Source: Alphaproteobacteria bacterium (lineage in GTDB: Bacteria; Pseudomonadota; Alphaproteobacteria; CAAHEQ01; UBA3637). From it: a stretch of DNA of 64,000 bases. Positions 3,960 to 54,012 of the stretch are shown here, piece by piece. The notes under the pieces are model-generated. The model did no database searches and was not told the DNA's origin. It was given only the letters and a program-made list of their open reading frames with translations. Position numbers and translations under genes: made by a program. The stretch's first letter is position 1. The number at the start of each line of letters is the position of its first letter. The stretch is from positions 6,101 to 70,100 of the forward strand of contig JAZUQR010000026.1 of the NCBI GenBank assembly GCA_045605805.1. The letters run 5' to 3'.

Positions 3960-3969
3960 ATCCTCCTTC

Positions 3970-5202: not shown

Positions 5203-5232
5203 CCTTTTATCCCCCCTTATTGCTCGGCTGTT

Positions 5233-34591: not shown

Positions 34592-34633
34592 GAAAAAAGC
34601 CCGTTTCAAACGGGCTGAATCTTAAATTGGTGG
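34592..34633. repeat. 42-bp direct repeat identical to 53901-53942 (tRNA-Ala 3' end plus terminator hairpin); putative att site, left island boundary
   Basis: Exact 42/42 match. Sequences diverge immediately outside. Confidence 0.7.
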
Positions 34634-34926: not shown

Positions 34927-35397
34927 CTACTTTTCGGTTTTTTTATAGAGAATAAAGTGAGGTAATTTATCCATATCTATATAATTAAACATTTTATAAT
35001 TAGCTCGTCTGGCTTCAGGAGATAAGGTGTACTTTCTTAAATGATCCTTAGGGACGAAAGGATAGAACCAAATCTCATGATGTGAAACACCTTTTTCTTT
35101 CCATTTAAAATTGAGAATTAACAACGGAGGTAAAATCCCAGCTTTCAAAACTTTTTCCATAATGTCCCAACCGGCTCCACGAACAACGGATGAAGGTTTA
35201 TGGTTAGCACTTTTAATTTGGGCGCGAAAATTACAGCCAGTACATTGAATATCACACAGCGGATAATTGTTTGGTAAAAGCATTAACTTTTTACCGCCAT
35301 TAGGACAACAGACCAAATCTACAACTTCTTGTTCCCCAAGCTTTCCATTTTCCTGGTTAATTGACATTTCTACCTCCATATCTGTTGTTATATACAT
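34927..35397 (-). CDS. Hypothetical protein with Cys-cluster (CC-x11-C-x3-C-x2-C, zinc-ribbon-like)
   Basis: ORF with 'CCPNGGKKLMLLPNNYPLCDIQCTGC'. Confidence 0.4.
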   Translation of the reverse strand: MYITTDMEVEMSINQENGKLGEQEVVDLVCCPNGGKKLMLLPNNYPLCDIQCTGCNFRAQIKSANHKPSSVVRGAGWDIMEKVLKAGILPPLLILNFKWKEKGVSHHEIWFYPFVPKDHLRKYTLSPEARRANYKMFNYIDMDKLPHFILYKKTEK

Positions 35398-36227: not shown

Positions 36228-36292
36228 GTCTATTTTTCTTGATTTTTTATGAATTAAAGGATATGCTGATTAAAAATCAGGAGGAAATAGCT

Positions 36293-37216
36293 ATGCAACC
36301 CAAATTTTTACATTCTTTTGTGACGCGTTCTCATAAAGGCGTTTATGGCATTATTCGGAAAAATAATCAGATTTTACTCATCCGTAAAGCACGTGGTCCC
36401 TATACAGGGCTTTATGATTTGCCCGGTGGAAGTCCGGAAGCTGATGAAACACCTGAACAAACAGTGGCTCGTGAAATCAAAGAAGAAACAAATTGTGATT
36501 TAATTTCTTGCACCAACCAACGTGAAAAAACAATTTTCTTTTCCAAATTTACCAAAGAAAGTGGAGAAGAAGGCTGTATGCAACACACGGGGATTTTGTT
36601 TGATGTTAAGGTGGCGGGTGAACCCACAACCCAAGGGGATGGATTAGATTCCAATGGAGCTGTTTGGGTAGATATCAATACTTTATCCAGTCAAAATGCA
36701 ACACCTTTTGTTTTAATGGGCTGTGGTAAGGAAGTTATCAATTTAGCCAATGAAGAGGATTACCCTGTGGATGTCGCTGTGCGTGGGGAACCTATCCCCG
36801 AAGGAAGGTGTCCCATGATTGCAGGTCTCTTTTTGTTCAACTCTAAAGGCAATATTATTTTGCAGAAAGTGGCTTTATCAAAGAAAACAGATCCGGGGAA
36901 ATGGAGTTATTCTGCTGCTGGGCATGTGGATGCTGGTGAAACTTATGAACAGGCTGCCTTACGTGAATTAAGCGAAGAAATGGGAATTAAGGCCTCCGGC
37001 ATAACCTTTGTTGGAAAAGGCCATATATTAAAGAACGGCAATCCTCGTGCTTTTCATCATGTATTCAAGGTGATTTCTGATGATAAGATTACTTTTGAAC
37101 CGACCGAGGTAGCCGAAGTTAAAGAATGGACTATTCCGGAATTAAAAGAGCAAATAGGGACTCACCCCGAACAATTCAAAGATATTTTTGCCCAAATTTT
37201 TATGGAGGTCTTTTAA
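36293..37216 (+). CDS. Tandem (double) Nudix hydrolase
   Basis: Two Nudix boxes: 'GGSPEADETPEQTVAREIKEETNCD' and 'GHVDAGETYEQAALRELSEEMGI'. Confidence 0.75.
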   Translation: MQPKFLHSFVTRSHKGVYGIIRKNNQILLIRKARGPYTGLYDLPGGSPEADETPEQTVAREIKEETNCDLISCTNQREKTIFFSKFTKESGEEGCMQHTGILFDVKVAGEPTTQGDGLDSNGAVWVDINTLSSQNATPFVLMGCGKEVINLANEEDYPVDVAVRGEPIPEGRCPMIAGLFLFNSKGNIILQKVALSKKTDPGKWSYSAAGHVDAGETYEQAALRELSEEMGIKASGITFVGKGHILKNGNPRAFHHVFKVISDDKITFEPTEVAEVKEWTIPELKEQIGTHPEQFKDIFAQIFMEVF

Positions 37217-37229
37217 TCAAGGAGGAAAC

Positions 37230-37664
37230 ATGTCAGGACCAGAAAGATTTAAAGTACCCGTTGGGATTTTTATAATGCTACGTCAAGACGATAAAGTTTT
37301 GTTGCAGCTGAGGCAAAATTGCTCGTTCAGTGGATATTGGGGATTCGTTGGTGGCCATTTGGATGGAAATGAACAGATCATCTCTGCCGCTATTCGTGAA
37401 GCAAAAGAGGAAGTCGGGGTGGATATTTTACCGGACGATTTGACCTTAAAGACCATTTGCCACAGTAATAAAGGCGAAGAGTACCTGCAATTTTATTTTG
37501 AATGTCGCAAGTGGTTAGGTGAAATTGAAAATAAGGAGCCCCACAAATGCGAACGCTTGGAATGGCATGAATGGAATAAGCTCCCTGAGCATACTTGTCC
37601 CTATTTGAAGGAAGCAGTAAGCAAAATCAATTCAGGAATTTCTTTTTACGAGGATACTTTTTAA
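37230..37664 (+). CDS. Nudix hydrolase
   Basis: 'GGHLDGNEQIISAAIREAKEEVGVD'. RBS aaggagg. Confidence 0.75.
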   Translation: MSGPERFKVPVGIFIMLRQDDKVLLQLRQNCSFSGYWGFVGGHLDGNEQIISAAIREAKEEVGVDILPDDLTLKTICHSNKGEEYLQFYFECRKWLGEIENKEPHKCERLEWHEWNKLPEHTCPYLKEAVSKINSGISFYEDTF

Positions 37665-38254
37665 TGCTGAATAAACTTATTTACTTAACGACAAATCCTC
37701 ATAAAGTTCAAGAAGCCAATGAATTTCTTATTAAGAAATATGGGTTTAATTTGGAAATCATGAAACCTTCTTTTGAAGTGCTGGAGATTCAAGCAAAAAC
37801 TTGTGGCGAGGTTGCGAAATTTAGCGCTAAGTATGGGGCTGAAAAACTGGGAGTTCCGGTTTTGAAATCCGATTCAGGACTTTATATCGAAGCATTGGGC
37901 GGTTTGCCAGGACCTTATAATGCCTATTTTGACAAGCAAATAGGAACAGAAAAGTTTTTGGATATGATGAAAGATATCCCAAATAGGCATGCTAAATTGG
38001 AACATTGTTTTGCTTATTGTGAGCCAGGACAAGAACCCATCTTGTTTACAGGGGGAAGTACGGGGCGTATTTCTTATGAAGCCAAAGGAGAGAAAGGGCG
38101 TTGGCATGACAAGTTTTATATCCCTGATGGGGAAGAAAAAACACTCAGCGAATTACGCGCCATCAACCATGAATATGAGGCACAATTTTGGGGACATGCC
38201 TTGGATGACTTTGCAAAATGGTACAAAGAAAAATTAGAAAAGGATAAAATTTAG
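37664..38254 (+). CDS. Ham1/Maf-superfamily non-canonical purine NTP pyrophosphatase (ITPase-like)
   Basis: 'LTTNPHKVQEAN' and 'SDSGLYIEALGGLPGPYNAYF' motifs. TAATG overlap with upstream gene. Confidence 0.7.
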   Translation: MLNKLIYLTTNPHKVQEANEFLIKKYGFNLEIMKPSFEVLEIQAKTCGEVAKFSAKYGAEKLGVPVLKSDSGLYIEALGGLPGPYNAYFDKQIGTEKFLDMMKDIPNRHAKLEHCFAYCEPGQEPILFTGGSTGRISYEAKGEKGRWHDKFYIPDGEEKTLSELRAINHEYEAQFWGHALDDFAKWYKEKLEKDKI

Positions 38255-38268
38255 TGAAAGGATAACAA

Positions 38269-38850
38269 ATGCAATTACCAGAACAAATTGAATCAGAACG
38301 GATTATTTTAAAGCACCCTATGAAACCGACCTTTAAATTGGCTGAGGAGCTTTACGCGATTGTGGATAAATCCAGAAATACTTTAAGCGAATGGCTCCCT
38401 TGGGTGGATAAAACGAACTCTGTAGAGGATGAATTTACTGGATATCTGGTGAGTCTGAATCAAAAACATTGGGATGAAGGAAATGGTTTCGGTTATCTTA
38501 TTTATCAAAAGGAAACAAATCAGATTTTAGGCGTTGTGGATTTATGCCATGTTGAGGAAAAACATCAATCCGCCGAAATCGGGTATTGGCTCTCTGATGA
38601 CGCAACAGGTCATGGGTATATGCAAGAGGCTGTGCGTGCGTTGGAAAGCGAGGCCTTTCAAAATGGACTTAACCGGATTATCATCAGAAATGATACTTTG
38701 AATATACGCTCTGCCCATGTGGCTGAACGCTGTGGTTATATTTTGGAAGGTGTCATGCGTCAAGATTGTTGGGATGATTATCATCAGCATTTACGTAATA
38801 CCAATATCTGGAGCAAACTCAAATCCGAATGGGAGAAAGAACAAAAATGA
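38269..38850 (+). CDS. GNAT acetyltransferase (RimJ/RimL-like)
   Basis: 'IGYWLSDDATGHGYMQEAVRAL' motif. Confidence 0.7.
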   Translation: MQLPEQIESERIILKHPMKPTFKLAEELYAIVDKSRNTLSEWLPWVDKTNSVEDEFTGYLVSLNQKHWDEGNGFGYLIYQKETNQILGVVDLCHVEEKHQSAEIGYWLSDDATGHGYMQEAVRALESEAFQNGLNRIIIRNDTLNIRSAHVAERCGYILEGVMRQDCWDDYHQHLRNTNIWSKLKSEWEKEQK

Positions 38851-40058
38851 TTTCACTCAAATCAGCCCCTAGATGGTTATCTATTGCTTATGCCTTAACA
38901 TCGGCATTGTTTTGCCTGCCGACATTAATGCTTTTTTATGGGTTTAAAGGTGTTGGTATGGGGGATTTTTTCTTGATTCAAGGGATATCAAATCTCACTG
39001 TATTTTTTATGGAAGTTCCAACCGGCTATATCGGTGATTTGTTTTCCAGAAAACACACTTTAATTATCGGGGTATTGTTTTGGATCTTGGGGCATGTTAT
39101 TTGGATTTTGGGTTCAGGATTTTTCATTATTTTACTGGGGGAATTGTTATTTGCATTAGCGATTGCTTTCATTTCCGGCACGGCGGAAGCATATTTATAC
39201 GATTTATTGAAAAAACGACATAAAGAAAGTTTATTCCATAAAAAATATGCTAAAATGAAAATGTTGGATGGAATTGCTTTGATGGTGGCTACGCTGACCG
39301 GTGCTTTTATCTATCAATTTTTGGGGCCAACCATTCCGTTATACTTAACAATTTTCTGTTTAATGTTAAGTGTTGTTATTTTATGGCAATTACCGGATGT
39401 TCCCGAATCCAGACGTATTGTTGACAAAGATAAAAGCAAATGGCAGGATATTTTGGATATTTCCAAATATGCCGTTAAACATCCTGAAATAAAATGGCTG
39501 ATGCTTTTACCGGCGGTGTATGGGACATTAACGCTTATTTTGATGTGGGGATTACAATCCGTTATGGTATTTCATCAATTACCTGTATTTGTTTTCAGTT
39601 TGATTTTAGGGATAAACGCATTGATGAGAACTTTTTGGTCGGGCGTTTCCGGTCGGATATTGGAAAAAATAAACCTTTCCGGAACCATAAAATTGCAAAG
39701 TTTAATTATTATCATTGCCTCTTTGGGGGCATGTATATCGGCCTATGTTCCGTTATGGGGTGTTTATATATGTTTGGGCTTGATGATTATCGGATCAGCC
39801 TCCAGTTCTTTATCCAGTATCACAACATCTGTTTTGGTCAATCATAGGATTCAATCCAATGAACGGGCGACAATTTTATCGGTTAAATCAATGCTGGCAA
39901 AGGCTTTTCATGGGGTGGGACTTATCTGCTTGAAACCCTTGTTTGACGGAATAGGTGTCGGACCAACTTTTATGGTATCTGCCCTGCTTTTAATCCCTAT
40001 TCTGATTTGTGCAAGACACCTGTATAAGATGAAGTTAAGGATAATGAAAGGGGACTGA
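38847..40058 (+). CDS. MFS transporter
   Basis: 12 TM helices. ATGA overlap with upstream stop. Confidence 0.7.
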   Translation: MISLKSAPRWLSIAYALTSALFCLPTLMLFYGFKGVGMGDFFLIQGISNLTVFFMEVPTGYIGDLFSRKHTLIIGVLFWILGHVIWILGSGFFIILLGELLFALAIAFISGTAEAYLYDLLKKRHKESLFHKKYAKMKMLDGIALMVATLTGAFIYQFLGPTIPLYLTIFCLMLSVVILWQLPDVPESRRIVDKDKSKWQDILDISKYAVKHPEIKWLMLLPAVYGTLTLILMWGLQSVMVFHQLPVFVFSLILGINALMRTFWSGVSGRILEKINLSGTIKLQSLIIIIASLGACISAYVPLWGVYICLGLMIIGSASSSLSSITTSVLVNHRIQSNERATILSVKSMLAKAFHGVGLICLKPLFDGIGVGPTFMVSALLLIPILICARHLYKMKLRIMKGD

Positions 40059-40059
40059 T

Positions 40060-40953
40060 ATGCTGATACTGAACATCAATGGGCCAATGAATTCTGGGAA
40101 ATCTACGGTTTCTAAGATTTTGGTGAATATGCTCCCTAACGCCACTTTTATTGAAGTGGATGAATTAATGAGTGATGAGGAACAAGAAAAACTGGGGCTA
40201 TCCCTGCAACAAGGGTGGCGGGAACGTCATAAACGATTAAATCAGAAATTAAGGGCTCTTAAAAAATCGCATGAGTATGAAACTGTGATTTTTGCTTATC
40301 CGATTGCTGACAATACTTATCAGGATTGGAAAATGCTGGAGGATAACCACACAAAGTTTTTGAACATTACCCTTGCGCCCAGTTTGGAAGAATGTTTGAA
40401 AAATCGTGGCACACGAGAACTCACCGATTGGGAAAGAAATCGCATTCGTGAAATGTATGAAGAGGGATATCAAAACCGCCCATACGCCGACTTTATCATC
40501 AATAATGACCATCAAACACCCAAAGAAACTGCTGAGATTATTAAAGGATTTATTGAACATGCTCTCTCCCCAAAACAACAATGGTTACATTTGGTGGAAA
40601 AACGTTGGCCCGCCCTTTTGAACGGAGAAAAAACTTCCACTTTCCGTTTCAATGAAGGTTTCATCCATAAGGGCTTCTTGGTTTATAAAGACTGCCCAAA
40701 CGAACAGTTGGCCGAGGTTGTTTATGTGACACATGTGTATTATGTGCCTTTGCGCCAAGCCAATGAAATAGACGGATATGATGAGCATACACCGGATATG
40801 GAAACAGCCTTAAAACAAATGCGTGTTCATTATCCAGATATTACTTTGGATACGCCCATTTTATTTGCTCAGCACTTAGGAGTTCCTGAAACCAAACAGA
40901 AATATCCAGAAGAAGTTAAAGAAATATTGGAGAAAATGAATGTCAAAAACTAA
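40060..40953 (+). CDS. P-loop small-molecule kinase (CPT/zeta/uridine-kinase-like) fused to a C-terminal ASCH-like domain
   Basis: Walker A 'INGPMNSGKSTV'. C-terminal 'LLNGEKTSTFRFNEGFIHKG' ASCH-like. Confidence 0.5.
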   Translation: MLILNINGPMNSGKSTVSKILVNMLPNATFIEVDELMSDEEQEKLGLSLQQGWRERHKRLNQKLRALKKSHEYETVIFAYPIADNTYQDWKMLEDNHTKFLNITLAPSLEECLKNRGTRELTDWERNRIREMYEEGYQNRPYADFIINNDHQTPKETAEIIKGFIEHALSPKQQWLHLVEKRWPALLNGEKTSTFRFNEGFIHKGFLVYKDCPNEQLAEVVYVTHVYYVPLRQANEIDGYDEHTPDMETALKQMRVHYPDITLDTPILFAQHLGVPETKQKYPEEVKEILEKMNVKN

Positions 40954-41347
40954 ATTATCAGTATGTGGTGTCATTGTACATCAGAGCAAATTTCTAATAG
41001 TCAAACGTTCTGAAACAGATGACTTTTTGCCAAATTGTTGGGAATTCCCTGGTGGTGGTGTAGAAGATGGTGAAACAATATCCGAAGCCTTGAAACGAGA
41101 AATAAAAGAAGAAATAGGTTGGGATATATCAAATGAATATCCAAAACTCATCGGTATTTCTGAAGAGTTTATGAATGAAGAAAAAACAGAAAGATATTTA
41201 CAATTAAATTATAAGATTGTTATGGACACAGAACCCAACATGACACTCAGTTCCGAACATGTCGCTTTTGATTGGGCGGACACGACCGATTCCAGATTGG
41301 ACGATTTTCTAAAAGAGATTATTAGGCAACTGAATACAACAATCTAA
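40940..41347 (+). CDS. Nudix hydrolase
   Basis: 'GGGVEDGETISEALKREIKEEIGWD'. Confidence 0.7.
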   Translation: MSKTKLSVCGVIVHQSKFLIVKRSETDDFLPNCWEFPGGGVEDGETISEALKREIKEEIGWDISNEYPKLIGISEEFMNEEKTERYLQLNYKIVMDTEPNMTLSSEHVAFDWADTTDSRLDDFLKEIIRQLNTTI

Positions 41348-41729
41348 ACTCTTCGCATTCTAACATTGTGTCAGGGGTAATGTCTTTCCAATATGCCTTG
41401 TGAATTTTGCGCCAAGTAGCAAGGGTTTTATCTCCTTCGCCTTCTTTACGAGCAAAATCGGCATCTACATTATTAAAAGGAACAACAGAGACTTTGGTAT
41501 CCTCAATAATTGCTTGAGCATTACCAGTAGAATCTAGGATAATACTGATATCTCCTGCTTGATTGGTATTGCCACCTCGATAAATGCAACTAGTGGCCGT
41601 TTTCTCGCCACTTATGACCAATTGCAACAACTCATCTGGTTTGTCGCCAAAAGTAAAGATGTCATAAGATTTGCCTTTATATGATGGGAACTTTTCAACA
41701 AACTCTTTCCATAATTGTTCGGGAGTCAT
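41322..41729 (-). CDS. ASCH-domain protein
   Basis: 'FTFGDKPDELLQLVISGEKTATS' canonical ASCH N-terminal motif. Confidence 0.65.
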   Translation of the reverse strand: MTPEQLWKEFVEKFPSYKGKSYDIFTFGDKPDELLQLVISGEKTATSCIYRGGNTNQAGDISIILDSTGNAQAIIEDTKVSVVPFNNVDADFARKEGEGDKTLATWRKIHKAYWKDITPDTMLECEEFRLLYSVA

Positions 41730-41983
41730 TTGTTTCGCGCTCCTTTTACCCCAAAGACAGCTTTGAAGTTATACCTGTTCTTGTGAATAAGTTCAACCCC
41801 ATGGGCTTTGGATATAACCAGAACATATTTGCCTATCCACAGACGAAAGTAATAACTTTTAATGGCTAATTTAATATTTTCTTTTGTGCGATATTCAGTA
41901 CCATCAGCCCGCTCCACTTCAACACTTCGGCCGAAGCCAAAGCGATTGTTATCCAAATCAAATCCGTATTCAATGTAAATCAT
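41726..41983 (-). CDS. Hypothetical small protein in RM operon
   Basis: ATGA-coupled to downstream ASCH gene and overlaps upstream phosphatase gene. Confidence 0.4.
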   Translation of the reverse strand: MIYIEYGFDLDNNRFGFGRSVEVERADGTEYRTKENIKLAIKSYYFRLWIGKYVLVISKAHGVELIHKNRYNFKAVFGVKGARNK

Positions 41984-42440
41984 TTTTCTCCAAATAATCT
42001 AAAAACGCTTGGCAACCTTCATAAATATCCCAATAGGTTTCATCAAAGTTGCCAGTGTACCAAGGGTCTTTAACTGGTCGAGGATTTTGGGTGAAGTCCA
42101 ACAGACGATGCACTTTATGGTCTTTATCCTCGCCAACGATATCCAAAATATCCCGCACATTGTTATCGTCCATCGCCAAAATATAGTCAAATTTATCATA
42201 GTCGGACTTGCGAATTTGACGCGAGTAGTGTTGGGTGAAAGGGACTTTCATCTGCCGAAGCATATCCGCCGCTCGGTAATCCAGCGCCTCATGCACCATT
42301 TCGTTATACCCCTCTGTCGCGGCAGAGACAATTTCAAACTTGTCCGCTACACCTTTCTCAGCGACCATTTGCTTCATCACAAATTCCGCCATTGGCGACC
42401 GACAAATATTTCCAAGACATACGAATAGAACTTTAATCAT
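41970..42440 (-). CDS. Low-molecular-weight protein-tyrosine phosphatase / ArsC-like
   Basis: 'VLFVCLGNICRSPMAE' CX5R P-loop and 'DPWY' motif. TAATG overlap with hsdR stop. Confidence 0.8.
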   Translation of the reverse strand: MIKVLFVCLGNICRSPMAEFVMKQMVAEKGVADKFEIVSAATEGYNEMVHEALDYRAADMLRQMKVPFTQHYSRQIRKSDYDKFDYILAMDDNNVRDILDIVGEDKDHKVHRLLDFTQNPRPVKDPWYTGNFDETYWDIYEGCQAFLDYLEKNDLH

Positions 42441-45400
42441 TAAGCAACCCTCACATTGTCTGTCCAAAGTTCACATTGAGTCATAACCGTTTCAACGGCA
42501 TCCTCTACACCTTCTGGGGGATACTTATGCTTTTTCAATAACTTTTTAATAAGCATACGCATCTTTGCACGAGCATTCTCACGCCTTTGCCAGTCAATTG
42601 TTTTATTTTTACGCAGTGTTTCTGTTAGTTCTTTTGTAATGGCAACTAATTCGTCATTTTCATAAAAATCCTTAACTGCTTGAGGCTTTGTTAATGCATC
42701 ATAAAAGGCAACTTCTTCTGGTGTTAATCCTAAATCTGCCCCTTCCTTTTGGGCCTCCGAAATTTGTTTTGCCAGGCTGAGTAACTCTTCTATTACCTGC
42801 TCGTTGGTAAGCATACCATTTAGGTAGCGGTTCATAATTGCCTGAATTATTTCACTAAACTTTTCAGAACGCACAACGTTTGTTTTACGGTAAATAGAAA
42901 TTTGTTCTGCAATTAATTTTTTCAAAAGTTCAAGGGCTAAATTCTTTTGTTTCATTTTTGAAATTTCTTCCAAAAACTTCGGATCAAACAAAGAAAATTC
43001 TTTCTTTACATCAGAAAATAAATTAATAACGCCATCGCTTTTTATACTTTGTTTCAGCAACTCATTAATACGTTCATTCATTTCCTTCAAAGAAATCTTT
43101 TTGCCTTCTCCTGCATTAGTTAAGCGTAAGGTCAAAACACGAACGGCTTCCATAAAAGCGGCTTCTATGCGTTTTTCTTCCTTAACAATAGAAGAACACA
43201 AAGATAAGGATTGATGTAGCATCAAGGCATGCTTCAGGAATTGTTCTTTTTTCTTATCTGTTCCAATAATAAAGTTTACTGCCCCACTAATAAGCTCAGC
43301 ACGCTTTAAATTACTACCCGTCATAAATTGTTGATAATCAAATCCATGCAATAAATCACGACAAACACTTAATTTTTCTTCAAATTCTTTAAGTGCTGTT
43401 TCAGCGATATTCATATTTCCATAGTTCTTTTTATCACGAACTGTGTAATCGTTCATCGCTTGTTTCAGCGCATTTGCAATTCCGACATAATCTACAACAA
43501 GTCCACCTTCTTTATCCTCAAATACACGATTAACGCGAGCTATTGCCTGCATTAAATTATGTCCCATCATTGGTTTATAAACATACATCGTTGCCAAAGA
43601 AGGTACATCAAATCCGGTCAACCACATATCCACCACAATGGCAATTTTTAGAGGATCTTTGTTATCCTTAAATTTACGGGCCAACGCTTCTTTATGAGAT
43701 TTATTTCCAATGATTTGACGCCAATCTTCTGGGTCATCATTACTAGAAGTCATCACAACCCCCACTTTTTCTTTCCAATTGGGACGTAATTTTAAGATTT
43801 CTTCATAAATTTTCAAAGCAATAGGACGTGAATAAGCAACAATCATCGCCTTTCCAGTAAGCAAGTTTTCCCGATAATTTTCATAGTGGTCTATAATATC
43901 GTTTACCAAGGAATGAATAGTGTTATCATTCCCCAGAATTGCTTCCATTTGCCCAAGTTTCTTTTTACTTGCTTCAATGACTTCAGGATCTGCATTTTGG
44001 GCCATTAAATCATATTCATCATCAATTTTCTTGAGTGTTTCTTTATCCAGATTCAACTTAACCACTCGACTTTCATAGTAAACGGGGCGAGTTGCTCCAT
44101 CTTCCACAGCCTGTGTCATATCATAGATATCAATATAATTTCCAAACACTTCTTGCGTATTTCTGTCTTTTTTGGAAATAGGTGTCCCCGTAAACCCGAT
44201 AAATGTTGCATTTGGAAGACTATTGCGGATAACACGAGCAGTCCCTGTTTTAATTTTCCCGTCTTTGGTTATTTTTTCCGCCAAACCATATTGCCCCCGA
44301 TGAGCTTCATCTGCCATCACAATAATATTCCGGCGAGTGGACAATGGCTCTTCGGATTCTTCAAACTTCTGCATCGTTGTAAAGAAAATCCCATTGGCCT
44401 TGATACCATTTAATAACTTTTTCAAATGTTCCCGACTAGTTGCTTGAACGGGTTCTTGTCTTAAAAAGTCTTTACATTTGGCAAATTGTCCATAGAGTTG
44501 ATCGTCCAAATCATTGCGGTCTGTTAGTACCACAATTGTCGGACTGTTTAAAGCACTTTGTAGCAGGTGGGCATAAAACACCATAGATAAAGATTTACCA
44601 GAACCTTGTGTATGCCAAAACACACCACCTTTACCATCTGTTTCTGTTGCTTTTTGAGTTGAAGTAATGGCTTTTTTCACCGCGAAGTATTGGTGATATC
44701 CGGCCAAGATCTTTTTGCTTCCTTTATTTTCATTGGAAAAGCAAATAAAGTTCTTCAAAATATCCAAGAGTCTCTCTTTTGGAAAGATGCCTTTAAAAAA
44801 AGTATCAAACTGTGCGTGTTGGGTATTTTCATATTTTCCATCCACAGTTTTCCATTCCATAAAGCGTGTTTCATCAGAAGTAATCGTTCCCGCCTTGGAT
44901 GTCAATAAATCGCTTGTGACGCAAATAGCGTTATAGATAAACATAGAGGGGATTTCATGTTTATAGTTTTGGATTTGGCGATATGCCTCGGAGGCATCTG
45001 TTTCTTCACGGGAAGGAGATTTCAACTCCATCAAAACCAAAGGCAATCCGTTCACAAATAACAAAATATCCGGACGTTTTTCGCTGTTTTCAATAAAGGT
45101 CCATTGGTTAGCTACAATAAAAGAGTTTTTATCAGGTCTATTATAATCAATCAAATAAACAATGGTATCTTTGGGTTCTCCCTTTTCTGTATAGCGAACC
45201 GTAATACCACTTTGCAAATACTCCATAAACACAGCATTCTTTTGTGTTAGTTCTGCGTTCTCAAAGTTCTTTAATTTTGTTAAGGCCTCTTTAATCGCCA
45301 CTTCGGGAAGTTTAGGATTCAAGCGGCACAAAGCATCAATCAACTCATCTTCGTATAAGGGAGAATGAAAATCCCGACTTTCTAAATCAGGCCCATAGAC

Positions 45401-45487
45401 ATACCGATACCCCATCCCCTCAAACAACTCTATTACAGAGTTTTCATAAGCTTCTTCATTTACAGGATTGATAAAAGTATCGGTCAT
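42440..45487 (-). CDS. hsdR: Type I restriction enzyme R subunit
   Basis: 'TQGSGKSLSM' motif I, 'MADEAHRGQ' DEAH box, 1015 aa, HsdR N-terminal nuclease region. Confidence 0.9.
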   Translation of the reverse strand: MTDTFINPVNEEAYENSVIELFEGMGYRYVYGPDLESRDFHSPLYEDELIDALCRLNPKLPEVAIKEALTKLKNFENAELTQKNAVFMEYLQSGITVRYTEKGEPKDTIVYLIDYNRPDKNSFIVANQWTFIENSEKRPDILLFVNGLPLVLMELKSPSREETDASEAYRQIQNYKHEIPSMFIYNAICVTSDLLTSKAGTITSDETRFMEWKTVDGKYENTQHAQFDTFFKGIFPKERLLDILKNFICFSNENKGSKKILAGYHQYFAVKKAITSTQKATETDGKGGVFWHTQGSGKSLSMVFYAHLLQSALNSPTIVVLTDRNDLDDQLYGQFAKCKDFLRQEPVQATSREHLKKLLNGIKANGIFFTTMQKFEESEEPLSTRRNIIVMADEAHRGQYGLAEKITKDGKIKTGTARVIRNSLPNATFIGFTGTPISKKDRNTQEVFGNYIDIYDMTQAVEDGATRPVYYESRVVKLNLDKETLKKIDDEYDLMAQNADPEVIEASKKKLGQMEAILGNDNTIHSLVNDIIDHYENYRENLLTGKAMIVAYSRPIALKIYEEILKLRPNWKEKVGVVMTSSNDDPEDWRQIIGNKSHKEALARKFKDNKDPLKIAIVVDMWLTGFDVPSLATMYVYKPMMGHNLMQAIARVNRVFEDKEGGLVVDYVGIANALKQAMNDYTVRDKKNYGNMNIAETALKEFEEKLSVCRDLLHGFDYQQFMTGSNLKRAELISGAVNFIIGTDKKKEQFLKHALMLHQSLSLCSSIVKEEKRIEAAFMEAVRVLTLRLTNAGEGKKISLKEMNERINELLKQSIKSDGVINLFSDVKKEFSLFDPKFLEEISKMKQKNLALELLKKLIAEQISIYRKTNVVRSEKFSEIIQAIMNRYLNGMLTNEQVIEELLSLAKQISEAQKEGADLGLTPEEVAFYDALTKPQAVKDFYENDELVAITKELTETLRKNKTIDWQRRENARAKMRMLIKKLLKKHKYPPEGVEDAVETVMTQCELWTDNVRVA

Positions 45488-46338
45488 TTTTTCTCCTTTA
45501 ATCCTTTAAGAAATTCAGCCATTTTGTTTTTCCGTTCTTTATTATCTTTAGCCAAAACGCAGAATAAAAGCAATTGATAAATTTCATCATACCACTTTTC
45601 TAATTCTTCATTGGTCAGATTTGTTACTAGATTATTTTTCTTTTTACCTGCCTTGTTATTATGACGAATATCTAAATTATTAAGCATATTCTTTGCAGTT
45701 TTGAAATAATCAGTGAATCCGTCAATAGGATTATCTAAAATAGGTTCATATTCCTGAGCAATTCGACGTAAAATATCTTTTTTTTCTGCTAATTGTCCCT
45801 TTAATGATGCATGATGGTATTTTAAAATTGCCATTGCTGTATCTGTAGAGGAAATTTCTGCTACAGCTGTTGCAGCAGGATTTTTAGGAATTAAAATAAC
45901 TTTTTCTTCTTCAGTAAATATCTTCTTTTCATGGTGAATATGTTCTAAAAGCAAATCTATATTACTCAAAAGCATAGGATATTCATTATAATACTGAAAA
46001 TTAATATTTTGACGACCAACTCCTCGCTTCTGTATCAATAAATTTATAAGATTAAGATAATACTCTAAAATTGTTACCATTTCATCAGTGGTATCCACAT
46101 GTTCTGAAATGAATATTTTGTGTCTCATTTCATCACAGTTTAAGCAACTTCCTCTTTGCTTCCAATTTACAAAAGCATAACTATCTACCATTTGTTCAAT
46201 AGTTCCCTGTGTTTGTTGAAAATTTAAAGGATTTGTATACACCAACATTGCGGTATTAAATAATTTAACAATTTTTCGAAATTCTTTTTGAAAATCATAC
46301 TTGCTTGCTAAAATTTCAAAGATATTTTTACGAGTCAT
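45484..46338 (-). CDS. Uncharacterised protein embedded between hsdS and hsdR (284 aa)
   Basis: ATGA overlaps on both sides. No motif I can assign. Confidence 0.55.
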   Translation of the reverse strand: MTRKNIFEILASKYDFQKEFRKIVKLFNTAMLVYTNPLNFQQTQGTIEQMVDSYAFVNWKQRGSCLNCDEMRHKIFISEHVDTTDEMVTILEYYLNLINLLIQKRGVGRQNINFQYYNEYPMLLSNIDLLLEHIHHEKKIFTEEEKVILIPKNPAATAVAEISSTDTAMAILKYHHASLKGQLAEKKDILRRIAQEYEPILDNPIDGFTDYFKTAKNMLNNLDIRHNNKAGKKKNNLVTNLTNEELEKWYDEIYQLLLFCVLAKDNKERKNKMAEFLKGLKEKK

Positions 46339-46808
46339 GGGGCATCCTTTTTATTTTCCAGTGGCTTATTAAAACAATCGATATTCTTTTTTAGTTCTAC
46401 TGTTAAATCGTTGGTTACAGCATATATTTTATAATCTTTTATATTGGCAATATCTTTATTAGTATTATCATCTATTTTGGGAATAAAAACAGTATTATAG
46501 GGAGATATCACAAGGGGACTCCCTAACGCGGTCCAAAAACCACTTTGCGTATTATTATCTTCTACATATATACGGTAAATAACTTCCGTTTTATTTTTAT
46601 GATTAACAATGCAAAAGTTTGTTATATTTGCCTTTTGAGTCTTGTGATCATACATTGCTGTCGGCAAAACAATAGATAAATCGTGCCCCGTTCTTTCTTG
46701 TTTATCATCTTTTGCTATCTTTGCCATGGTCTTGGTAAGGAAAAATATGGCAATTGTCAAAATTAACATTGATGTTGATAAAACTATGTTCCAATCTATA
46801 TAAACCAT
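46335..46808 (-). CDS. Uncharacterised membrane-anchored protein embedded in RM operon (~157 aa)
   Basis: N-terminal TM 'VLSTSMLILTIAIFFL'. ATG at 46808 preferred over TTG at 46814. Confidence 0.5.
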   Translation of the reverse strand: MVYIDWNIVLSTSMLILTIAIFFLTKTMAKIAKDDKQERTGHDLSIVLPTAMYDHKTQKANITNFCIVNHKNKTEVIYRIYVEDNNTQSGFWTALGSPLVISPYNTVFIPKIDDNTNKDIANIKDYKIYAVTNDLTVELKKNIDCFNKPLENKKDAP

Positions 46809-46810
46809 AT

Positions 46811-48022
46811 TCAAACCTCCACATTATCGACATTGATTTTGCCGGACATGAGTTTGGGTAATAAAGTGTCTCGAAGTGCAGACAACTGGATATTTTCTCT
46901 TTGGTTTGCTTTAATTTGTGCAAACATTGGAGAAATCACAGAATGGAAATCTTTCAATTCAGATTCTTCTGGCATAACAAAAGGCATTGATTTAATAATT
47001 TTTGAATTAACGGCAGTTGCAATGGATGACGTGCTCCCCATTGTTTGAAAATTAAAGTTTTTCAAATAATAATACAAATATTCGTTTATTTCTTTTTTAT
47101 CTGTTCCAAAATGAGCAATGGCTTCGTTTGTTGCCATTTCTCCATCTGTAATTGCAATTCTTCCAACAGTCAGTTTAAAGCTCAATAGAACAGTATTATC
47201 TGGTACAATTTTAACATTAAATTTGGAAATTGACTCTGGAACTAAATATTCAGAACTATCAGAAATATACAGCCCACAATTTCCCATATCGGATATAGAT
47301 ATCCATTTAATATCATTAGTGTTTTTTGAAAACCATTCAGGCTCTTTTCGGGGAGGAGTTTTCCCGATTGTAATATTAAAAAATTCTTCAGCTTTTATCG
47401 TTTTTCTGTTTGGATTTATTTTATCTATGAACCAAGATTTAAAGAGGGCTTGGGCTTGGAGTTCGAGGTTTTGATTGATTTTGTTGTTCAGCTCTATCTT
47501 ATCATCCAGAGCCCCCAACACCCCCGCAATCTTCCTCTGCACCTCCACTGGCGGTATATTTACAGGGATGGAATACAAATGTCCAACCTTTATGCTAGGT
47601 TGTACAGAACTTATATTCAATGCTTGTATATAACTTTGTATATTGGGTTGAGATAAACAATAATACATGAATGTAGAGTCAATGTCCTCTTTATACTGCA
47701 TGGCAATGATGTTTTGCGCTATACACCCCTTATCTTGCGGCATTAAAGCAACTTTTCCAATGTTTCCAACAGTTGTTATTAAAACATCTTTTGGGTTGGG
47801 ATGTCCACTTCGAAACCAATTCTGATACGTTTCAATATTAACAAATTTTGATGCAGAAGCCAAATCTGGGTATCTATCTCCAGCTTTTAATAAGTTGCTT
47901 TCAAGTAGAGGAATGATACCTTCCGTATCCAAGGGTGCATTCTTTCCCCGGTTATCAATTGTATTTTTAACCAAATCCCCTAATTTAATCTCTCGCCAAC
48001 CTGACATTATATTATTTGCCAT
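46811..48022 (-). CDS. hsdS: Type I restriction-modification specificity subunit
   Basis: Two target-recognition-domain halves with conserved central/C-terminal helices. Start MANNIMSGW with RBS aggga. Confidence 0.8.
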   Translation of the reverse strand: MANNIMSGWREIKLGDLVKNTIDNRGKNAPLDTEGIIPLLESNLLKAGDRYPDLASASKFVNIETYQNWFRSGHPNPKDVLITTVGNIGKVALMPQDKGCIAQNIIAMQYKEDIDSTFMYYCLSQPNIQSYIQALNISSVQPSIKVGHLYSIPVNIPPVEVQRKIAGVLGALDDKIELNNKINQNLELQAQALFKSWFIDKINPNRKTIKAEEFFNITIGKTPPRKEPEWFSKNTNDIKWISISDMGNCGLYISDSSEYLVPESISKFNVKIVPDNTVLLSFKLTVGRIAITDGEMATNEAIAHFGTDKKEINEYLYYYLKNFNFQTMGSTSSIATAVNSKIIKSMPFVMPEESELKDFHSVISPMFAQIKANQRENIQLSALRDTLLPKLMSGKINVDNVEV

Positions 48023-48032
48023 CAAATATTCC

Positions 48033-48917
48033 CTATTTTTTAATAAGTTCATATAGCAAAGGAAAGTTACTTTTTTGGTAAGAATCCAAGTATTGGCTTG
48101 GAATGTCCTTTAATGTTTCATTATTAAATTCATAGATATCAACAATTTCCCTTGAAACAATTTTTTCTTCACCATTTTTCTGTAATTTATTATATCTTAC
48201 CAAGGCTAAAATAGTATCATTTTGATTGCTACGACGCAATGGATGCTTTCCTAATAAAAACTCCTCTCTAAACTTCTGGTCTTTTATTGATGCAATTAAT
48301 GTTGTATTATTTTCTAAATCTTTAAAATTCCAATTTCCCTCTGTTTCCGTATTAATTGGTTTGTATATAACTAGTTTCTGGATTTTATATACGGGATCTA
48401 AATTTCTTATGATATCCCCTTCCACATATTTGAGAAAATCTTTTCTTTTAATTGGAAAGGTATGTTCATTAGAAAAACCAACCCCATTAATATGGTTATT
48501 TAGCCAACACCTTTTATAAAAGTTTGATTTTGCATTAAGTGCAGCATCCAAATTTATCGATGCAGGAATTTCGATATGTTCTTGCAACATGAAGCCAGAA
48601 AACATTTCAGAAATATATTGTCCGGCGTTTTCCCCCAATTCATTTAGGCTCTTCCCTGTTAATCCTTTAATAAAACCAGGCACAAATTCATTAAACAAAA
48701 ATGATCCCAAAAACAAACAAATTGTAAATTTTCCTTTAAAAGAACCTTCTTCTGTTGCATTTAAATATATTTGATAATCCGTGTCCTTAAAACAGGTTTT
48801 TGTAATATTTTTATATATCAATTCAATTTGCTGTGATAAAAAAATAAAATCAGATAATTCCAACGCATGTGTTGGGGTATCTAAATGTAATATAAATTCA
48901 CTCTTTTGTTCAGTCAT
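48033..48917 (-). CDS. Uncharacterised protein embedded between hsdM and hsdS (294 aa)
   Basis: ATGA overlap with hsdM stop. No recognisable motif. Confidence 0.55.
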   Translation of the reverse strand: MTEQKSEFILHLDTPTHALELSDFIFLSQQIELIYKNITKTCFKDTDYQIYLNATEEGSFKGKFTICLFLGSFLFNEFVPGFIKGLTGKSLNELGENAGQYISEMFSGFMLQEHIEIPASINLDAALNAKSNFYKRCWLNNHINGVGFSNEHTFPIKRKDFLKYVEGDIIRNLDPVYKIQKLVIYKPINTETEGNWNFKDLENNTTLIASIKDQKFREEFLLGKHPLRRSNQNDTILALVRYNKLQKNGEEKIVSREIVDIYEFNNETLKDIPSQYLDSYQKSNFPLLYELIKK

Positions 48918-50425
48918 TCAACCTCCCATCCAATTTGTTTCAATTTTGTTTTGATTTCTTCTTGAAGTGTAGAGGATTGTTTGAACATCTCGGAAAGTTC
49001 AGCCGTCAAACGTTTCATTTTGTCTTCAAACGGTTCGCCATCATCGGCTTGTTCCTCTATCCCCACATAACGACCTGGCGTCAAGATGTAATCTTGCTTG
49101 GCAATATCCTCAGTTGTTGCAACAGCACAGAAACCTTTCACATTTTCCAATGTGCCATTTTGGAATGCGGTAAATGTATCGGCCAATTTCTTGATGTCTT
49201 TATCTGTGAAGTCACGGTGTTTTCTGTCCACCATATATCCCATCTTGCGTGCATCAATGAAAACTGTGCGGCCTTTTTGTTGCTTATTCTTGGTAATAAA
49301 CCACAATGTGACCGGAATTGTGACGCTATAGAACAATTGTGTTGGCAGAGCAATAATACCTTCCACTAAGTCAGCCTCAATAATCCGCCGGCGAATATCG
49401 CCTTCACCACTATTGGTAGAGGAAAGGGCTCCGTTCGCCAAGACTAAACCGATTTTACCCCCTGGTGCCAAATGATGTATCATATGCTGAATCCACGCAT
49501 AGTTAGCATTACCTGCCGGAGGTGTTCCAAATTCCCATCGAGGATCGTCTTTTAATTTGTCTTGTCCCCAGTTGGATAGGTTAAATGGAGGATTCGCCAT
49601 AATGAAGTCAAACTTTTCGTGTTGGTGCAGGTCGTTAAAGAATGTATCGGCCTGATACGGTCCCAAATTGGCATCTATCCCACGAATAGCCATATTCATT
49701 TTTGCCATTTTCCAAGTATCTGCGTTGGATTCTTGACCATATACAGAGATTCTGTCACGATTGCCACTGTGGGCTTGCAAGAACTTAACCGATTGCACAA
49801 ACATGCCACCCGAACCACAGCATGGGTCATAAACGCGGCAGTTGTCAAAGGGTTTCAAAACTTCTACAATTGTGCGGACAATGCTGGATGGAGTGTAAAA
49901 TTCACCGCCTTTTGTTCCTTCATACGCGGCAAACTGAGCAATGCAGTATTCATAAGTTCTGCCCAACAGGTCTTTGTCCTTATCCGTTTCGGACATATCT
50001 ATGTTGTTTGTAAACAAATCCACAACATTGCCCAAAACTCGTTTATCCAAATCTTGGTTAGCATAGTTCTTTGGAAGAACGTTTTTCAGGGATTTATTTT
50101 CAGCCTCAATAGCACGCATGGCTTCATCAATCACCATACCGATTTCGGGAGTATGGGCGGCTTCGGCTATTTTGCTCCAACGAGCTGCCTCAGGAACATA
50201 GAAAATGCCTTCCATTATATAAGCATCTTTATCGTTTTCAAAACCATCCCCTTCTGCGACCAATTGGTTATAACGCTTTTCAAATGCAAAAGAAATGTAG
50301 CGCAGGAAAATTAAACCCACAATGACTTTGCGGTAATCCGCCGCAGGAATATGTCCCCACAGTTCGCATGCGGCTTCCCAGATTTGCTTTTCAAAACCTA
50401 TATTTGCGTTGTTTTTCCCTGCCAT
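48914..50425 (-). CDS. hsdM: Type I restriction-modification N6-adenine DNA methyltransferase
   Basis: 'FIMANPPFNLSNW' motif IV, 'VYDPCCGSGGM' motif I, HsdM N-terminal domain. RBS aaagaggt. Confidence 0.9.
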   Translation of the reverse strand: MAGKNNANIGFEKQIWEAACELWGHIPAADYRKVIVGLIFLRYISFAFEKRYNQLVAEGDGFENDKDAYIMEGIFYVPEAARWSKIAEAAHTPEIGMVIDEAMRAIEAENKSLKNVLPKNYANQDLDKRVLGNVVDLFTNNIDMSETDKDKDLLGRTYEYCIAQFAAYEGTKGGEFYTPSSIVRTIVEVLKPFDNCRVYDPCCGSGGMFVQSVKFLQAHSGNRDRISVYGQESNADTWKMAKMNMAIRGIDANLGPYQADTFFNDLHQHEKFDFIMANPPFNLSNWGQDKLKDDPRWEFGTPPAGNANYAWIQHMIHHLAPGGKIGLVLANGALSSTNSGEGDIRRRIIEADLVEGIIALPTQLFYSVTIPVTLWFITKNKQQKGRTVFIDARKMGYMVDRKHRDFTDKDIKKLADTFTAFQNGTLENVKGFCAVATTEDIAKQDYILTPGRYVGIEEQADDGEPFEDKMKRLTAELSEMFKQSSTLQEEIKTKLKQIGWEVE

Positions 50426-50529
50426 TTTGGACCTCTTTTCGTTTAGAATCATAATATCGTAAATTCTAGCCGATTTTTTCTGAAAAGGCAATCAGAAATA
50501 TAAGGTCTGTTGTATTTAATTATGGTGCT

Positions 50530-50727
50530 TTACTCTACCTCAAACCATTTCATGCAGGTGGCAAGCAAGTGGTCGTAATTGCCGGAGGTGGCTTCTGCCT
50601 GAAAGGCATCTTGTTCTTTTTGATTCAAACCGGCTTGACGCATGGCTCTTAAACAGATACCTAGGATATTAAAGGCATTCCCGTCTTTACCGGTCAACTG
50701 GACAATAATATCAGGATATTTTGGCAT
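50530..50727 (-). CDS. Small protein family B' (paralog of 36024-36227)
   Basis: RBS aaggag. Conserved 'DHLLATCMKWFEVE' versus 'NHLFITCMEWFNVE'. Confidence 0.55.
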   Translation of the reverse strand: MPKYPDIIVQLTGKDGNAFNILGICLRAMRQAGLNQKEQDAFQAEATSGNYDHLLATCMKWFEVE

Positions 50728-50737
50728 GACGATCTCC

Positions 50738-51046
50738 TTATTTAACCTCAAGCCCCAAGTAGCGGCAGTAGCTTGATCCTGACGGGTCGGCGTAAAGTGT
50801 CGGCTGACCGTCACATTCCAGGGCGATAACCTGACGTTGGTTGTCGTCGTTATATCCGCCTTTGCCGGATAAAAAGATGTAGTTATCCAGAGGGCGTTGG
50901 CAGACAGCCTGATACCAAGCAGGCGATAAATGAACTGTTTCGGCTATCACCACTTCTTTGGCTTGGTGTGCATATTTTTGGGTTAAATCCCGAACTTCGG
51001 AAATATCGGAGGGCTTGCGGACCATGTAAGTTTTAACTGTTTTCAT
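50738..51046 (-). CDS. Small protein family A' (paralog of 35509-35763)
   Basis: RBS aaaggag. 'VCQRPLDNYIFLSGKGGYND'. Confidence 0.55.
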   Translation of the reverse strand: MKTVKTYMVRKPSDISEVRDLTQKYAHQAKEVVIAETVHLSPAWYQAVCQRPLDNYIFLSGKGGYNDDNQRQVIALECDGQPTLYADPSGSSYCRYLGLEVK

Positions 51047-51151: not shown

Positions 51152-51318
51152 CCAGAAGTGACCAGTGACCAGCCAGGAAAAATTGGGTCCCCTTATAACC
51201 CTTGTGTTTATTGGGGTTTGAGATATACCCGACCAGCCAGAATTTTTCGGTTTCGCTAGAAATATGGCGCGGCTTGCGTCCCCGCATATGAAATCTCGCC
51301 AGGAAGGACCTCTGGCCA
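51152..51318. repeat. Conserved ~170-bp non-coding element, copy B (three GTGACCAG iterons plus conserved core)
   Basis: Aligns with 33399-33570. Lies in the 5' leader of the RM operon and 3' of the nitroreductase gene. Confidence 0.6.
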
Positions 51319-52740: not shown

Positions 52741-53714
52741 ATGAGAGGGAAAATGGTTAATCTTTGACGGGTGGAAAACCGAACAGTTTTCTTTGTTCGG
52801 GCCAACTGGCCGGGATAGAGGCCCTCAATAATTCTCGGGCGGTCATAGTTTTGGGTTGAGCTCCCCGTAAAATGGCATCAATAATATCCGGTGCCAAAAA
52901 GGTAAGCCGAATTTGCGCCCCGATATAGGCCGGATCCTGATGATATACTTCGGCCAGTTCATGCAGGTTTAAGTTCTTGGCTTCCTAGGTTTCACGATAA
53001 GTAAAACCGTTGGCCAAAATCTTAATGAGATAGCGGTCTTCTTTCTTGGATGGCTTTTCACCTGAGGTCAAATACAGCATATCCGACACCGTTTCGGGCA
53101 AATGAATCTCTTTGCTCCCACGATGTGTAATCAGGTTAAAGGGAACCGTTGATTCCATCAGTTCCGGTTTTAATTCATTGGGTTTCAAACTGGCTTTCAG
53201 GCGTTTGTCCATCAGGTGAAGGGCCAAAGGTTTCCAGACCACAATAATTTTATCGGCAAAAATCGTTACCCCGTGAACCAGCAGGCTGACTATTTTTTCC
53301 TTTTGCGTGCCGGTCAGTTGTTGAAAGACAGAGTCAGTTTCACGCATGGCATAAAAGACTTCGCTTTCTTTTAAGTCCGGTTGCACTTGGCAGGCTTCCT
53401 GAGCCAGCGCCTGTAAAACATACGGGGATTTAATCAGTGGATTGAGCAAGTCCATCACCAAATTATCCAACAAGTGCATGGGGATGGCATTCAGCCGACA
53501 TGAATGAGGTCCGTATTTTTTGTGTATTTGATTTGAATAGGTTTTGGGCGGATTCAAATGTTTCTTTATCAATAATCGCTTGATGTTGGCCCGGGAAAGA
53601 AGTCCCTTTATGCGTAATCTCACCGATATAAACACGATTATTAAGCATACTCCTTAAAAAGGTCCAGCCGGGAACTTTTCCCCGAAAAGTGCAATTTTCC
53701 CGTAAAAGGCGCAA
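52741..53714 (-). pseudogene. Large serine recombinase remnant (internal TAG, frameshift, catalytic N-domain missing)
   Basis: 'NNRVYIGEITHKGTSFPGQHQAIIDKETFESAQ' recombinase-domain motif. C-terminal 'LAPDIIDAILRGAQPKTMTARELL' after in-frame TAG. Confidence 0.55.
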
Positions 53715-53900: not shown

Positions 53901-53942
53901 GAAAAAAGCCCGTTTCAAACGGGCTGAATCTTAAATTGGTGG
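53901..53942. repeat. 42-bp direct repeat copy 2 (tRNA-Ala last 6 nt plus downstream terminator); right island boundary
   Basis: Identical to 34592-34633. Hairpin agcccgttt/aaacgggct followed by T-run on minus strand acts as tRNA-Ala terminator. Confidence 0.7.
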
Positions 53943-54012
53943 AGATAAGGGGAATCGAACCCCTGACCTACGCATTGCGAACGCGTCGCTCTACCAACTG
54001 AGCTATATCCCC
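53937..54012 (-). tRNA. tRNA-Ala (anticodon CGC) with G3:U70 identity pair, CCA-encoded
   Basis: Reverse complement folds into cloverleaf: acceptor GGGGATA/TATCTCC, anticodon loop TTCGCAA, T-loop TTCGATT. Confidence 0.9.

Follow-up and report, generated by a model that had tools for sequence, protein, structure and literature searches.

Genes embedded in restriction-modification (R-M) loci have already yielded new anti-phage systems. PrrC resides in the EcoprrI locus, a Type Ic locus with the order prrA-B-C-D (PMC3874165), and DarTG2 lies between hsdS and hsdR in enteropathogenic Escherichia coli, at a site termed a potential recombination hotspot (PMC12255303). The principle has been described as "guilt-by-embedding", and the PDC families are untested candidates proposed for their embedding in Type I R-M, BREX or DISARM loci (10.1101/2024.01.29.577857). 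Here we describe an hsd operon with three embedded open reading frames (ORFs), orf294, orf157 and orf284, in a 64,000-nucleotide (nt) stretch of contig JAZUQR010000026.1 from an Alphaproteobacteria bacterium, hereafter the window, whose positions are used throughout. We consider it probable that this is an intact Type I R-M operon on a tRNA-Ala island, and that the slots between its hsd genes carry three independent single-gene cargos serving as second-line anti-phage genes. The overall layout is ordinary for defence loci, and the window adds three candidates from gut lineages.

The hsd operon and its cargo slots

We took a Type I R-M locus to be one encoding a separate HsdM (an N6-adenine methyltransferase with HsdM_N), HsdS (with two target-recognition domains, TRDs) and HsdR (an HSDR_N nuclease with a superfamily 2 motor). 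Searches with profile hidden Markov models (HMMs) found all three in the window operon, each complete, in agreement with a preliminary description of the sequence, which had recognised such an operon with further genes lodged between the hsd genes. The tightly packed minus-strand operon of that description, running from 51046 to 41322, was also confirmed; its eleven co-oriented ORFs were all found where they had been placed, and with the most plausible starts nearly every junction is an overlap or a gap of a few bases, the only real gap being one of 104 nt between the small gene B' and hsdM. The central six genes are:

48914..50425, minus strand: hsdM, ATG at 50425, 503 amino acids (aa) from MAGKNN (N6_Mtase 1.5e-109, HsdM_N 1.4e-23, PADLOC MTase_I 7e-192); ATGA overlap with orf294
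48033..48917, minus strand: orf294, cargo of the hsdM-hsdS (M-S) slot, hydrophobic in its centre (65-83) and with a C-terminal domain rich in beta structure; 20-nt overlap with the longest hsdS ORF, or a 10-nt gap if hsdS begins at its 11th codon (ATG 48022)
46811..48052, minus strand: hsdS, two TRDs (Methylase_S 2.1e-30 over two stretches, PADLOC Specificity_I 1.5e-85); a ribosome-binding site, GGAGG, lies within its 3' end and the orf157 ATG 2 nt past its stop
46335..46808, minus strand: orf157, one N-terminal transmembrane helix and a conserved soluble domain of about 120 aa; ATGA overlap with orf284
45484..46338, minus strand: orf284, cargo of the hsdS-hsdR (S-R) slot, with a variable N-half (31-135) and a conserved C-half (136-284); ATGA overlap with hsdR
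42440..45487, minus strand: hsdR, full length, 1015 aa (TIGR00348 3.4e-187); TAATG junction with a phosphatase gene

All three embedded ORFs run in the same direction as the hsd genes and are coupled to them translationally, and their guanine-plus-cytosine (GC) content is 28-31%, compared to 43% for hsdM and 37% for hsdR. They are real genes under purifying selection (ratio of nonsynonymous to synonymous substitution rates, dN/dS, of 0.06 for orf294, 0.38 for orf157 and 0.09-0.14 for the orf284 C-half). None of orf294, orf157 and orf284 had a significant match of its own in Pfam, NCBIfam, PHROG or PADLOC scans, and none corresponds to a familiar hsd accessory protein such as PrrC, RloC, Abi_2 or DUF4145, in keeping with the preliminary description, which had recognised nothing in them. 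They also matched none of the Specificity_I, REase_I or MTase_I models (PADLOC, Pfam) and are therefore not hsd fragments, a possibility that the preliminary description had raised beforehand for a second hsdS or hsdR.

The slots were compared in 65 metagenomic loci chosen solely for an HsdR 73-93% identical to that of the window. S-R slots were empty in 16 of the 65, and the others held more than 100 protein clusters. Taken over about 100 related loci, the two slots contained upwards of 100 alternative families of cargo. Occupants of the slots in these sister loci included Fic/DOC (four times), RhuM (three times), AAA_21/AAA_15 with DUF4435, and Schlafen (SLFN) AlbA_2, as well as CAP12/Pycsar TIR, PIN_12, GIY-YIG, DUF4917, DUF3644, PDC-S05, PDC-S23 and tyrosine recombinases. 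Related loci are given L numbers here; L004, L005 and L047 are the most informative, having HsdM and HsdR 98-99% identical to those of the window and wholly different contents in both slots. A four-gene PIN_12 module takes the place of orf294 in L004, and other genes do so in L005 and L047. When the window was aligned with these three loci at the nucleotide level, a mosaic was observed: A', B', hsdM and hsdR were 90-99% identical (hsdR, 95-99%), the M-S cargo and most of hsdS could not be aligned, and similarity ended at the slot borders, where breakpoints lie. Within hsdS, the TRD1 region (47423-48022) is 98% identical to L005 6727-7326 and the remainder is unalignable, a clean example of TRD shuffling between loci. 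The lineage to which this hsd operon belongs is a common one among uncultured bacteria of the gut.

Both slots, M-S and S-R, are hot spots for cargo in general, as had been described before. We propose that the two gaps would act as recombination hot spots with the conserved hsdM and hsdR as homology arms, between which hsdS and accessory cargo would be exchanged, and of such a swap of hsdS together with defence cargo the comparative data offer a clean natural example. By the same comparisons, each embedded ORF has its own distribution and its own history. The DarTG2 locus (PMC12255303) is alike in having a small first ORF, hsdM, hsdS, embedded defence cargo and hsdR; in contrast, its cargo is unrelated and the window's small proteins A' and B' have no similarity to RptR.

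In the sister loci, the two slots were most often occupied by tyrosine recombinase (Phage_integrase) genes (L075 6017-7012 and 27 similar ORFs in L047-L126), and none is present in the window. They suggest phase-variable hsdS shufflons in those loci, in which the recombinases would have a putative role in hsdS inversion.

The embedded genes

We regard orf284 as the most worthwhile lead, since it belongs to a large, tightly conserved family of small proteins that is unrecognised by Pfam, NCBIfam, PHROGs and PADLOC. Its 438 homologous clusters have the same length and 52-99% identity, and none has a Pfam domain. Mean pairwise identity is 37% in the N-half and 68% in the C-half. The family has the invariant motifs PKNPAATAVAEIS, KYHHASLKG, LNNxxIRHNN and YQLLLFCVL, and its invariant Arg and His residues are R3, R62, R225, R269, H176 and H226. 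An AlphaFold2 model (predicted local distance difference test score, 83) has an alpha/beta N-half and a helical C-half, and the resemblance of the latter to HEPN is weak. No known fold or structural relative was found for the protein, and a family profile search of the PDB returned only noise. There were no relatives in IMG/VR, and tblastn of a plasmid collection returned nothing. NucC (4.5e-4) and Translin (8.5e-3) were rejected as identities because these matches are weak and were obtained for only 4 of 32 members.

The genomic context of orf284 was surveyed with one genome per species, giving 37 loci from gut Alphaproteobacteria, Elusimicrobia and Melainabacteria, lineages that are presumably poorly covered by the RefSeq genomes behind PADLOC. 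The order hsdS-orf284-hsdR was found in 31 of the 37, and one further locus was truncated next to hsdR. Typically orf284 begins 6-57 nt after hsdS and mostly stands straight before hsdR, often with an ATGA overlap, and HsdR identities in its loci range from 33 to 99%. Recurrence of the embedded ORFs in R-M loci elsewhere, which the preliminary description had suggested looking for in Type I loci, was thus observed for orf284 and also for orf294, as given below. There were no hsd genes near orf284 in 4-5 of the 37 genomes. In the sample of 65 loci, which was unbiased toward orf284, the gene was found twice, and we therefore rejected it as an integral part of the window's hsd lineage. Recombination breakpoints fall inside orf284 itself: the N-half could not be aligned among the window, L004, L005 and L047, and the conserved C-half runs on without a break into the conserved flank of hsdR. 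Such domain swapping is a pattern typical of immune sensors.

The gene resembles prrC (PMC3874165) in occupying the slot between hsdS and hsdR, co-oriented and coupled, a location shared with PrrC/RloC in the window and in the 31 species genomes. It is unlike PrrC/RloC in having no ABC-type NTPase, no Walker A motif and no detectable sequence similarity to PrrC, and with its 284 aa it is much the smaller protein; no ATPase match was obtained in Pfam, NCBIfam or PADLOC, and there is no P-loop among the invariant columns. Unlike the PrrC comparison locus, orf284 also occurs without hsd genes.

Directly after orf284, a soluble family of about 110 aa without a Pfam match (MELKDFIEQSVSDI...FDIAVTTSE) was found in 8 loci, not including the window, and may supply orf284 with a partner or with an immunity protein. 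Its members are:

L005 8861-9211, post-orf284 family of about 110 aa
L012 8871-9185, same family
L016 8837-9163, same family
L019 8868-9188, same family
L026 6519-6854, same family
L037 8867-9217, same family
L040 315-647, same family
L041 8840-9202, same family

A Cys-rich protein of about 150 aa (…LCDIQCTGC.FRA…) is encoded on the minus strand at 34927-35397, at the left end of the island, and has a clear homologue in L031 (2763-3212), two genes from a stand-alone copy of orf284 with a NUDIX gene between.

For orf294, the PADLOC HMM of PDC-S42 gave 18.2 bits (E 3.3e-4). Among 41 members of the orf294 family, 27 matched PDC-S42 HMMs (best, 2.6e-16) and 32 matched NCBIfam LAPAL_fam ("putative phage structural protein") below its cut-off. 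Because the window protein is weak and its relatives match, the link to PDC-S42 is transitive only; by these profile matches, orf294 is a distant relative of the PDC-S42 candidate family and of LAPAL_fam. A profile built from orf294 and four close relatives retrieved 405 cluster representatives from among 1.84 billion proteins. An R-M methyltransferase gene directly preceded orf294 in all 5 contexts examined. Three of these are of Type I (the window, L002 and L045), with the gene in the hsdM-hsdS slot, and two are of Type III (L003 and L046), with the gene in the mod-res slot, one of the two next to an AbiTii gene. The L046 locus (651-6700) is a Type III R-M system (N6_N4_Mtase ... ResIII) with two embedded genes, AbiTii and the orf294 homologue, so that the mod-res slot of Type III systems also takes this cargo family. 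The orf294 family overlaps PDC-S42 and is, as PDCs are, embedded in R-M loci; it differs in that the window protein reaches just 18 bits and in that the family is also related to LAPAL_fam. Searches of plasmid and phage collections by tblastn returned nothing for orf294, and a family profile search of the PDB gave only noise. Nothing specific on PDC-S42 or LAPAL was found in the literature, and the preprint supplements do not name PDC-S42.

The third gene, orf157, encodes 159 residues if the longest ORF is taken, with a Kyte-Doolittle maximum of 2.08 at residues 7-25, and belongs to a rare family of which 8 homologues were aligned. There were no relatives in IMG/VR, and the family profile search of the PDB gave only noise. 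A phage or plasmid origin of the embedded genes was considered and rejected, on searches that covered IMG/VR for orf284 and orf157, plasmids for orf284, and plasmids and phages for orf294. One homologue lies between a reverse transcriptase gene (RVT_1) and a DUF2513 gene (L042), and another precedes an unrelated 318-aa gene beside a Type II methyltransferase (L043/L044). In L004, orf157 is 88% identical to that of the window and the adjoining orf284 just 53%, so the two are not a co-inherited pair. The gene was found in 2 of about 32 orf284-bearing loci. A conserved module of orf157 and orf284 was rejected, the 318-aa partner in L043 being unrelated to orf284 (hhalign probability 0.9%) and about 30 orf284 loci lacking orf157. 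A different protein of about 160 aa with two transmembrane segments fills the hsdS-orf284 gap, where the window has orf157, in L034 (7484-7975) and L039 (7515-7988). Small membrane proteins were also considered as regular partners of orf284 and rejected, as there was no consistent pattern.

If the slots carry independent cargo, orf294, orf157 and orf284 would each work on its own, as a second line of anti-phage defence or in abortive infection, and be expressed together with the R-M system, in the manner of the Fic, RhuM, TIR, PIN, AAA_21 and Schlafen genes that occupy these slots in sister loci, and orf157 would act at the membrane. For orf284, a natural analogy is the guarded latent effector PrrC (PMC3874165). 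By this analogy, we infer that the most likely mechanism for orf284 would be a fast-swapping N-terminal sensing domain that controls a strongly conserved C-terminal helical effector. This effector might be a nuclease that includes the invariant H176/S178, R225/H226 and D/E residues, and the R-M complex might hold the protein in a latent state, as happens with PrrC. A bolder version, which we hold to be quite unlikely, is that orf284 founds a new and widespread group of R-M-resident "guard" effectors, in which a swappable sensor for phage anti-restriction or other phage proteins would direct a near-invariant C-terminal domain of unrecognised fold (H-x-S, NN...RHNN) to execute abortive infection, and in which the phosphatase encoded after hsdR would shield HsdR from inactivation by phosphorylation. 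If that were true, orf284 would be a second PrrC-like solution without an ATPase.

Several points weigh against independent defence cargo in the slots. Expression and co-transcription of the operon are deduced from the spacing of its genes; a promoter-like site (9/12 match, 50491-50463) lies inside the gap between B' and hsdM, and the promoter and terminator scans gave counts no better than in shuffled sequence. The defence activity of all three families is putative, PDC-S42 itself being a candidate only. The C-half of orf284 lacks the canonical Rx4-6H motif of HEPN RNases (RnlA/LsoA, Csx1, HepT toxins): there is no R-x(4-6)-H pair, and R225 and H226 are adjacent and in a loop. Lastly, the preference of orf284 for the position directly after hsdS, which is unseen in other cargo, could mean a functional tie to R-M rather than autonomy.

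Such a tie would be explained if orf284 were an accessory or regulatory Type I subunit, for example one affecting HsdR loading or activity, or restriction alleviation. The recurrence of its position between hsdS and hsdR across three phyla and the contiguity of its C-half with the hsdR flank are in keeping with this. However, 63 of the 65 close hsd loci lack orf284, so that those systems work without it; the gene also accompanies HsdR families just 33-40% identical to each other, and some of its copies stand apart from hsd genes altogether. We therefore consider a subunit role unlikely. The embedded ORFs could instead be selfish or addiction passengers of no benefit against phage, such as toxins of toxin-antitoxin systems or homing-type genes at hsd junctions. 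Their low GC content, their patchy distribution between conserved recombination arms and the constant insertion point of orf284 across very different hsd families fit such passengers. Nevertheless, no nuclease, recombinase or antitoxin partner was detected (Pfam, NCBIfam, PHROG, PADLOC), strong purifying selection has acted over long divergence, and the same slots are mostly filled by recognised defence-type domains, which makes this explanation improbable.

The tail of the operon

Three genes follow hsdR in the operon:

41970..42440, minus strand: low-molecular-weight protein tyrosine phosphatase (LMW-PTP), 156 aa (LMWPc 3.3e-37); its ATG overlaps the hsdR stop, and it overlaps the next gene by 14 nt
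41726..41983, minus strand: DUF3977 protein, 85 aa (DUF3977 3.4e-9); ATGA overlap with the next gene
41322..41729, minus strand: ASCH-domain protein, 135 aa (ASCH 2.3e-21)

The phosphatase has the full LMWPc domain, the C-X5-R-S/T P-loop (CLGNICRS, residues 8-15) and the DP-aromatic-Y acid loop (DPWY), in which it is like LMW-PTPs of the Wzb and YfkJ type. Known enzymes of that type work with BY-kinases or in stress responses. The preliminary description had singled out the coupling of a phosphatase and an ASCH protein to hsdR as unusual. Of the tail genes, only the phosphatase proved to be a recurrent neighbour of hsdR, the same hsdR/LMW-PTP stop/start overlap being found also in L004, L016, L047 and L048 (five loci with the window), where the downstream genes all differ. 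The window LMW-PTP is 66-69% identical to the other four, and those are 84-91% identical to each other. No ASCH homologue adjoined any of about 115 related hsd loci. The 85-aa ORF, for which a profile search had been suggested, proved to be a DUF3977 protein; it recurred only in L005 (84% aa identity), inverted and upstream of hsdM, and was not upheld as an hsdR partner. We read DUF3977 and ASCH as local neighbours that belong to the small-hydrolase cluster of the island, not as conserved partners of hsdR. By Pfam, the ASCH gene is neighboured on the plus strand by a P-loop kinase-ASCH fusion (40060-40953) and by a NUDIX gene (40940-41347) that converges on it; NUDIX (plus strand) and ASCH (minus strand) overlap at their 3' ends by 26 nt (41322-41347).

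The conserved junction raises the question of whether the LMW-PTP is functionally tied to HsdR, for example by removing an inactivating phosphorylation. The overlap persists in five loci with phosphatases 66-91% identical while the downstream genes differ, phosphorylation of the EcoKI HsdR has been reported (Cajthamlova 2007, as cited in PMC3874165), and the disarming of defences by a phage kinase is on record (PMC13645617). Against this, nucleotide identity falls from 0.95-0.99 to 0.6-0.79 exactly at 42439, the hsdR/LMW-PTP junction, so that the two genes have separate recombination histories. L005, with an hsdR 96% identical at the nucleotide level, has no phosphatase, nor do most sister loci. 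Stop/start overlaps also arise between functionally unrelated genes, and the phosphorylation of EcoKI is said to be on threonine, whereas the window enzyme has a tyrosine-phosphatase signature. Our literature search on protein tyrosine phosphatases and hsdR found no link and no description of a conserved stop/start overlap. On this evidence a functional tie is rather improbable, and we read the LMW-PTP as an old co-transcribed neighbour of hsdR. The conserved junction is a side finding of minor weight, with possible relevance to the phospho-regulation of restriction. Three further loci, L062 (4475-4924), L096 (13312-13761) and L097 (12806-13255), have LMW-PTP genes of lower identity (43-44%) at a distance of about 0.7-1.3 kb past hsdR on its downstream side, which hints at a looser, wider association of this phosphatase type with the hsd lineage.

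The central suggestion of the preliminary description, that the three ORFs, the phosphatase, DUF3977 and ASCH join with the R-M enzyme in a single composite defence system that includes a novel embedded module, is very improbable and by the comparative data already largely refuted. In its favour, all parts lie on one strand with overlapping or near-zero junctions, orf157 and orf284 stand together again in L004, and four more loci repeat the hsdR-LMWPc junction. Against it, orf294 is swapped for other genes in L004, L005 and L047; just two of the 65 sister loci have orf284; orf157 was found at two of about 32 orf284 loci and also in non-R-M contexts; ASCH adjoins none of the related hsd loci and DUF3977 only one (L005); mosaic breakpoints separate every part; and the slots are generic.

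Upstream genes and the tRNA-Ala island

Two small genes precede hsdM, and the whole operon with its tail lies inside a 19.3-kb island bounded by a perfect direct repeat:

50738..51046, minus strand: A' small protein, 102 aa from its ATG at 51046; weak match to phrog_21303 only; 10-nt gap to B'
50530..50727, minus strand: B' small protein, 65 aa from its ATG at 50727; phrog_1933 (PHROG family 1933) at 1.2e-25
34592..34633: left copy of the 42-nt perfect direct repeat
53901..53942: right copy of the repeat, overlapping the terminator hairpin of tRNA-Ala(CGC) and the final 6 nt of the tRNA
53937-54012, minus strand: tRNA-Ala(CGC)
52985-53714, minus strand: putative remains of a large serine recombinase at the island edge, by eye at least two out-of-frame pieces (53463-53714 and 52985-53635)

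A copy of A' with 90% identity lies upstream of hsdM in L004, and in L016 it is downstream and inverted; A' travels with the element and not with the hsd operon proper. B' is divergent from hsdM in L012 and L026 and is therefore no obligate member of the operon. It has no sequence relative in the PDB by profile search, and A' and B' were without similarity to solved structures, RptR included.

The GC content of the island is 0.382, compared to 0.41-0.43 in the flanks. The direct repeats and their overlap with the tRNA 3' end are those of a tRNA island. A Pfam scan of 52985-53635 found no family, and the recombinase part of the assignment rests on L004, where an intact 568-aa gene (Resolvase/Recombinase/Zn_ribbon_recom) is present at the same position upstream of A', together with DUF2924 and HTH_17 genes. 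The island of the window is probably immobilised.

A second direct repeat, of 78 nt and 85% identity, has one copy just outside the left border (33489-33566) and the other in non-coding sequence upstream of A' (51231-51308), and could mark an insertion that is nested or older, or else a regulatory element or small RNA. On the plus strand of the island, 36239-41347 is a dense run of small genes of "house-cleaning" type, among them two ORFs with NUDIX boxes by eye (36239-37216 and 37188-37664), a transporter like those of the major facilitator superfamily (MFS), an acetyltransferase-like gene that is closely matched by a homologue in L004, and the kinase-ASCH fusion and NUDIX genes next to ASCH.

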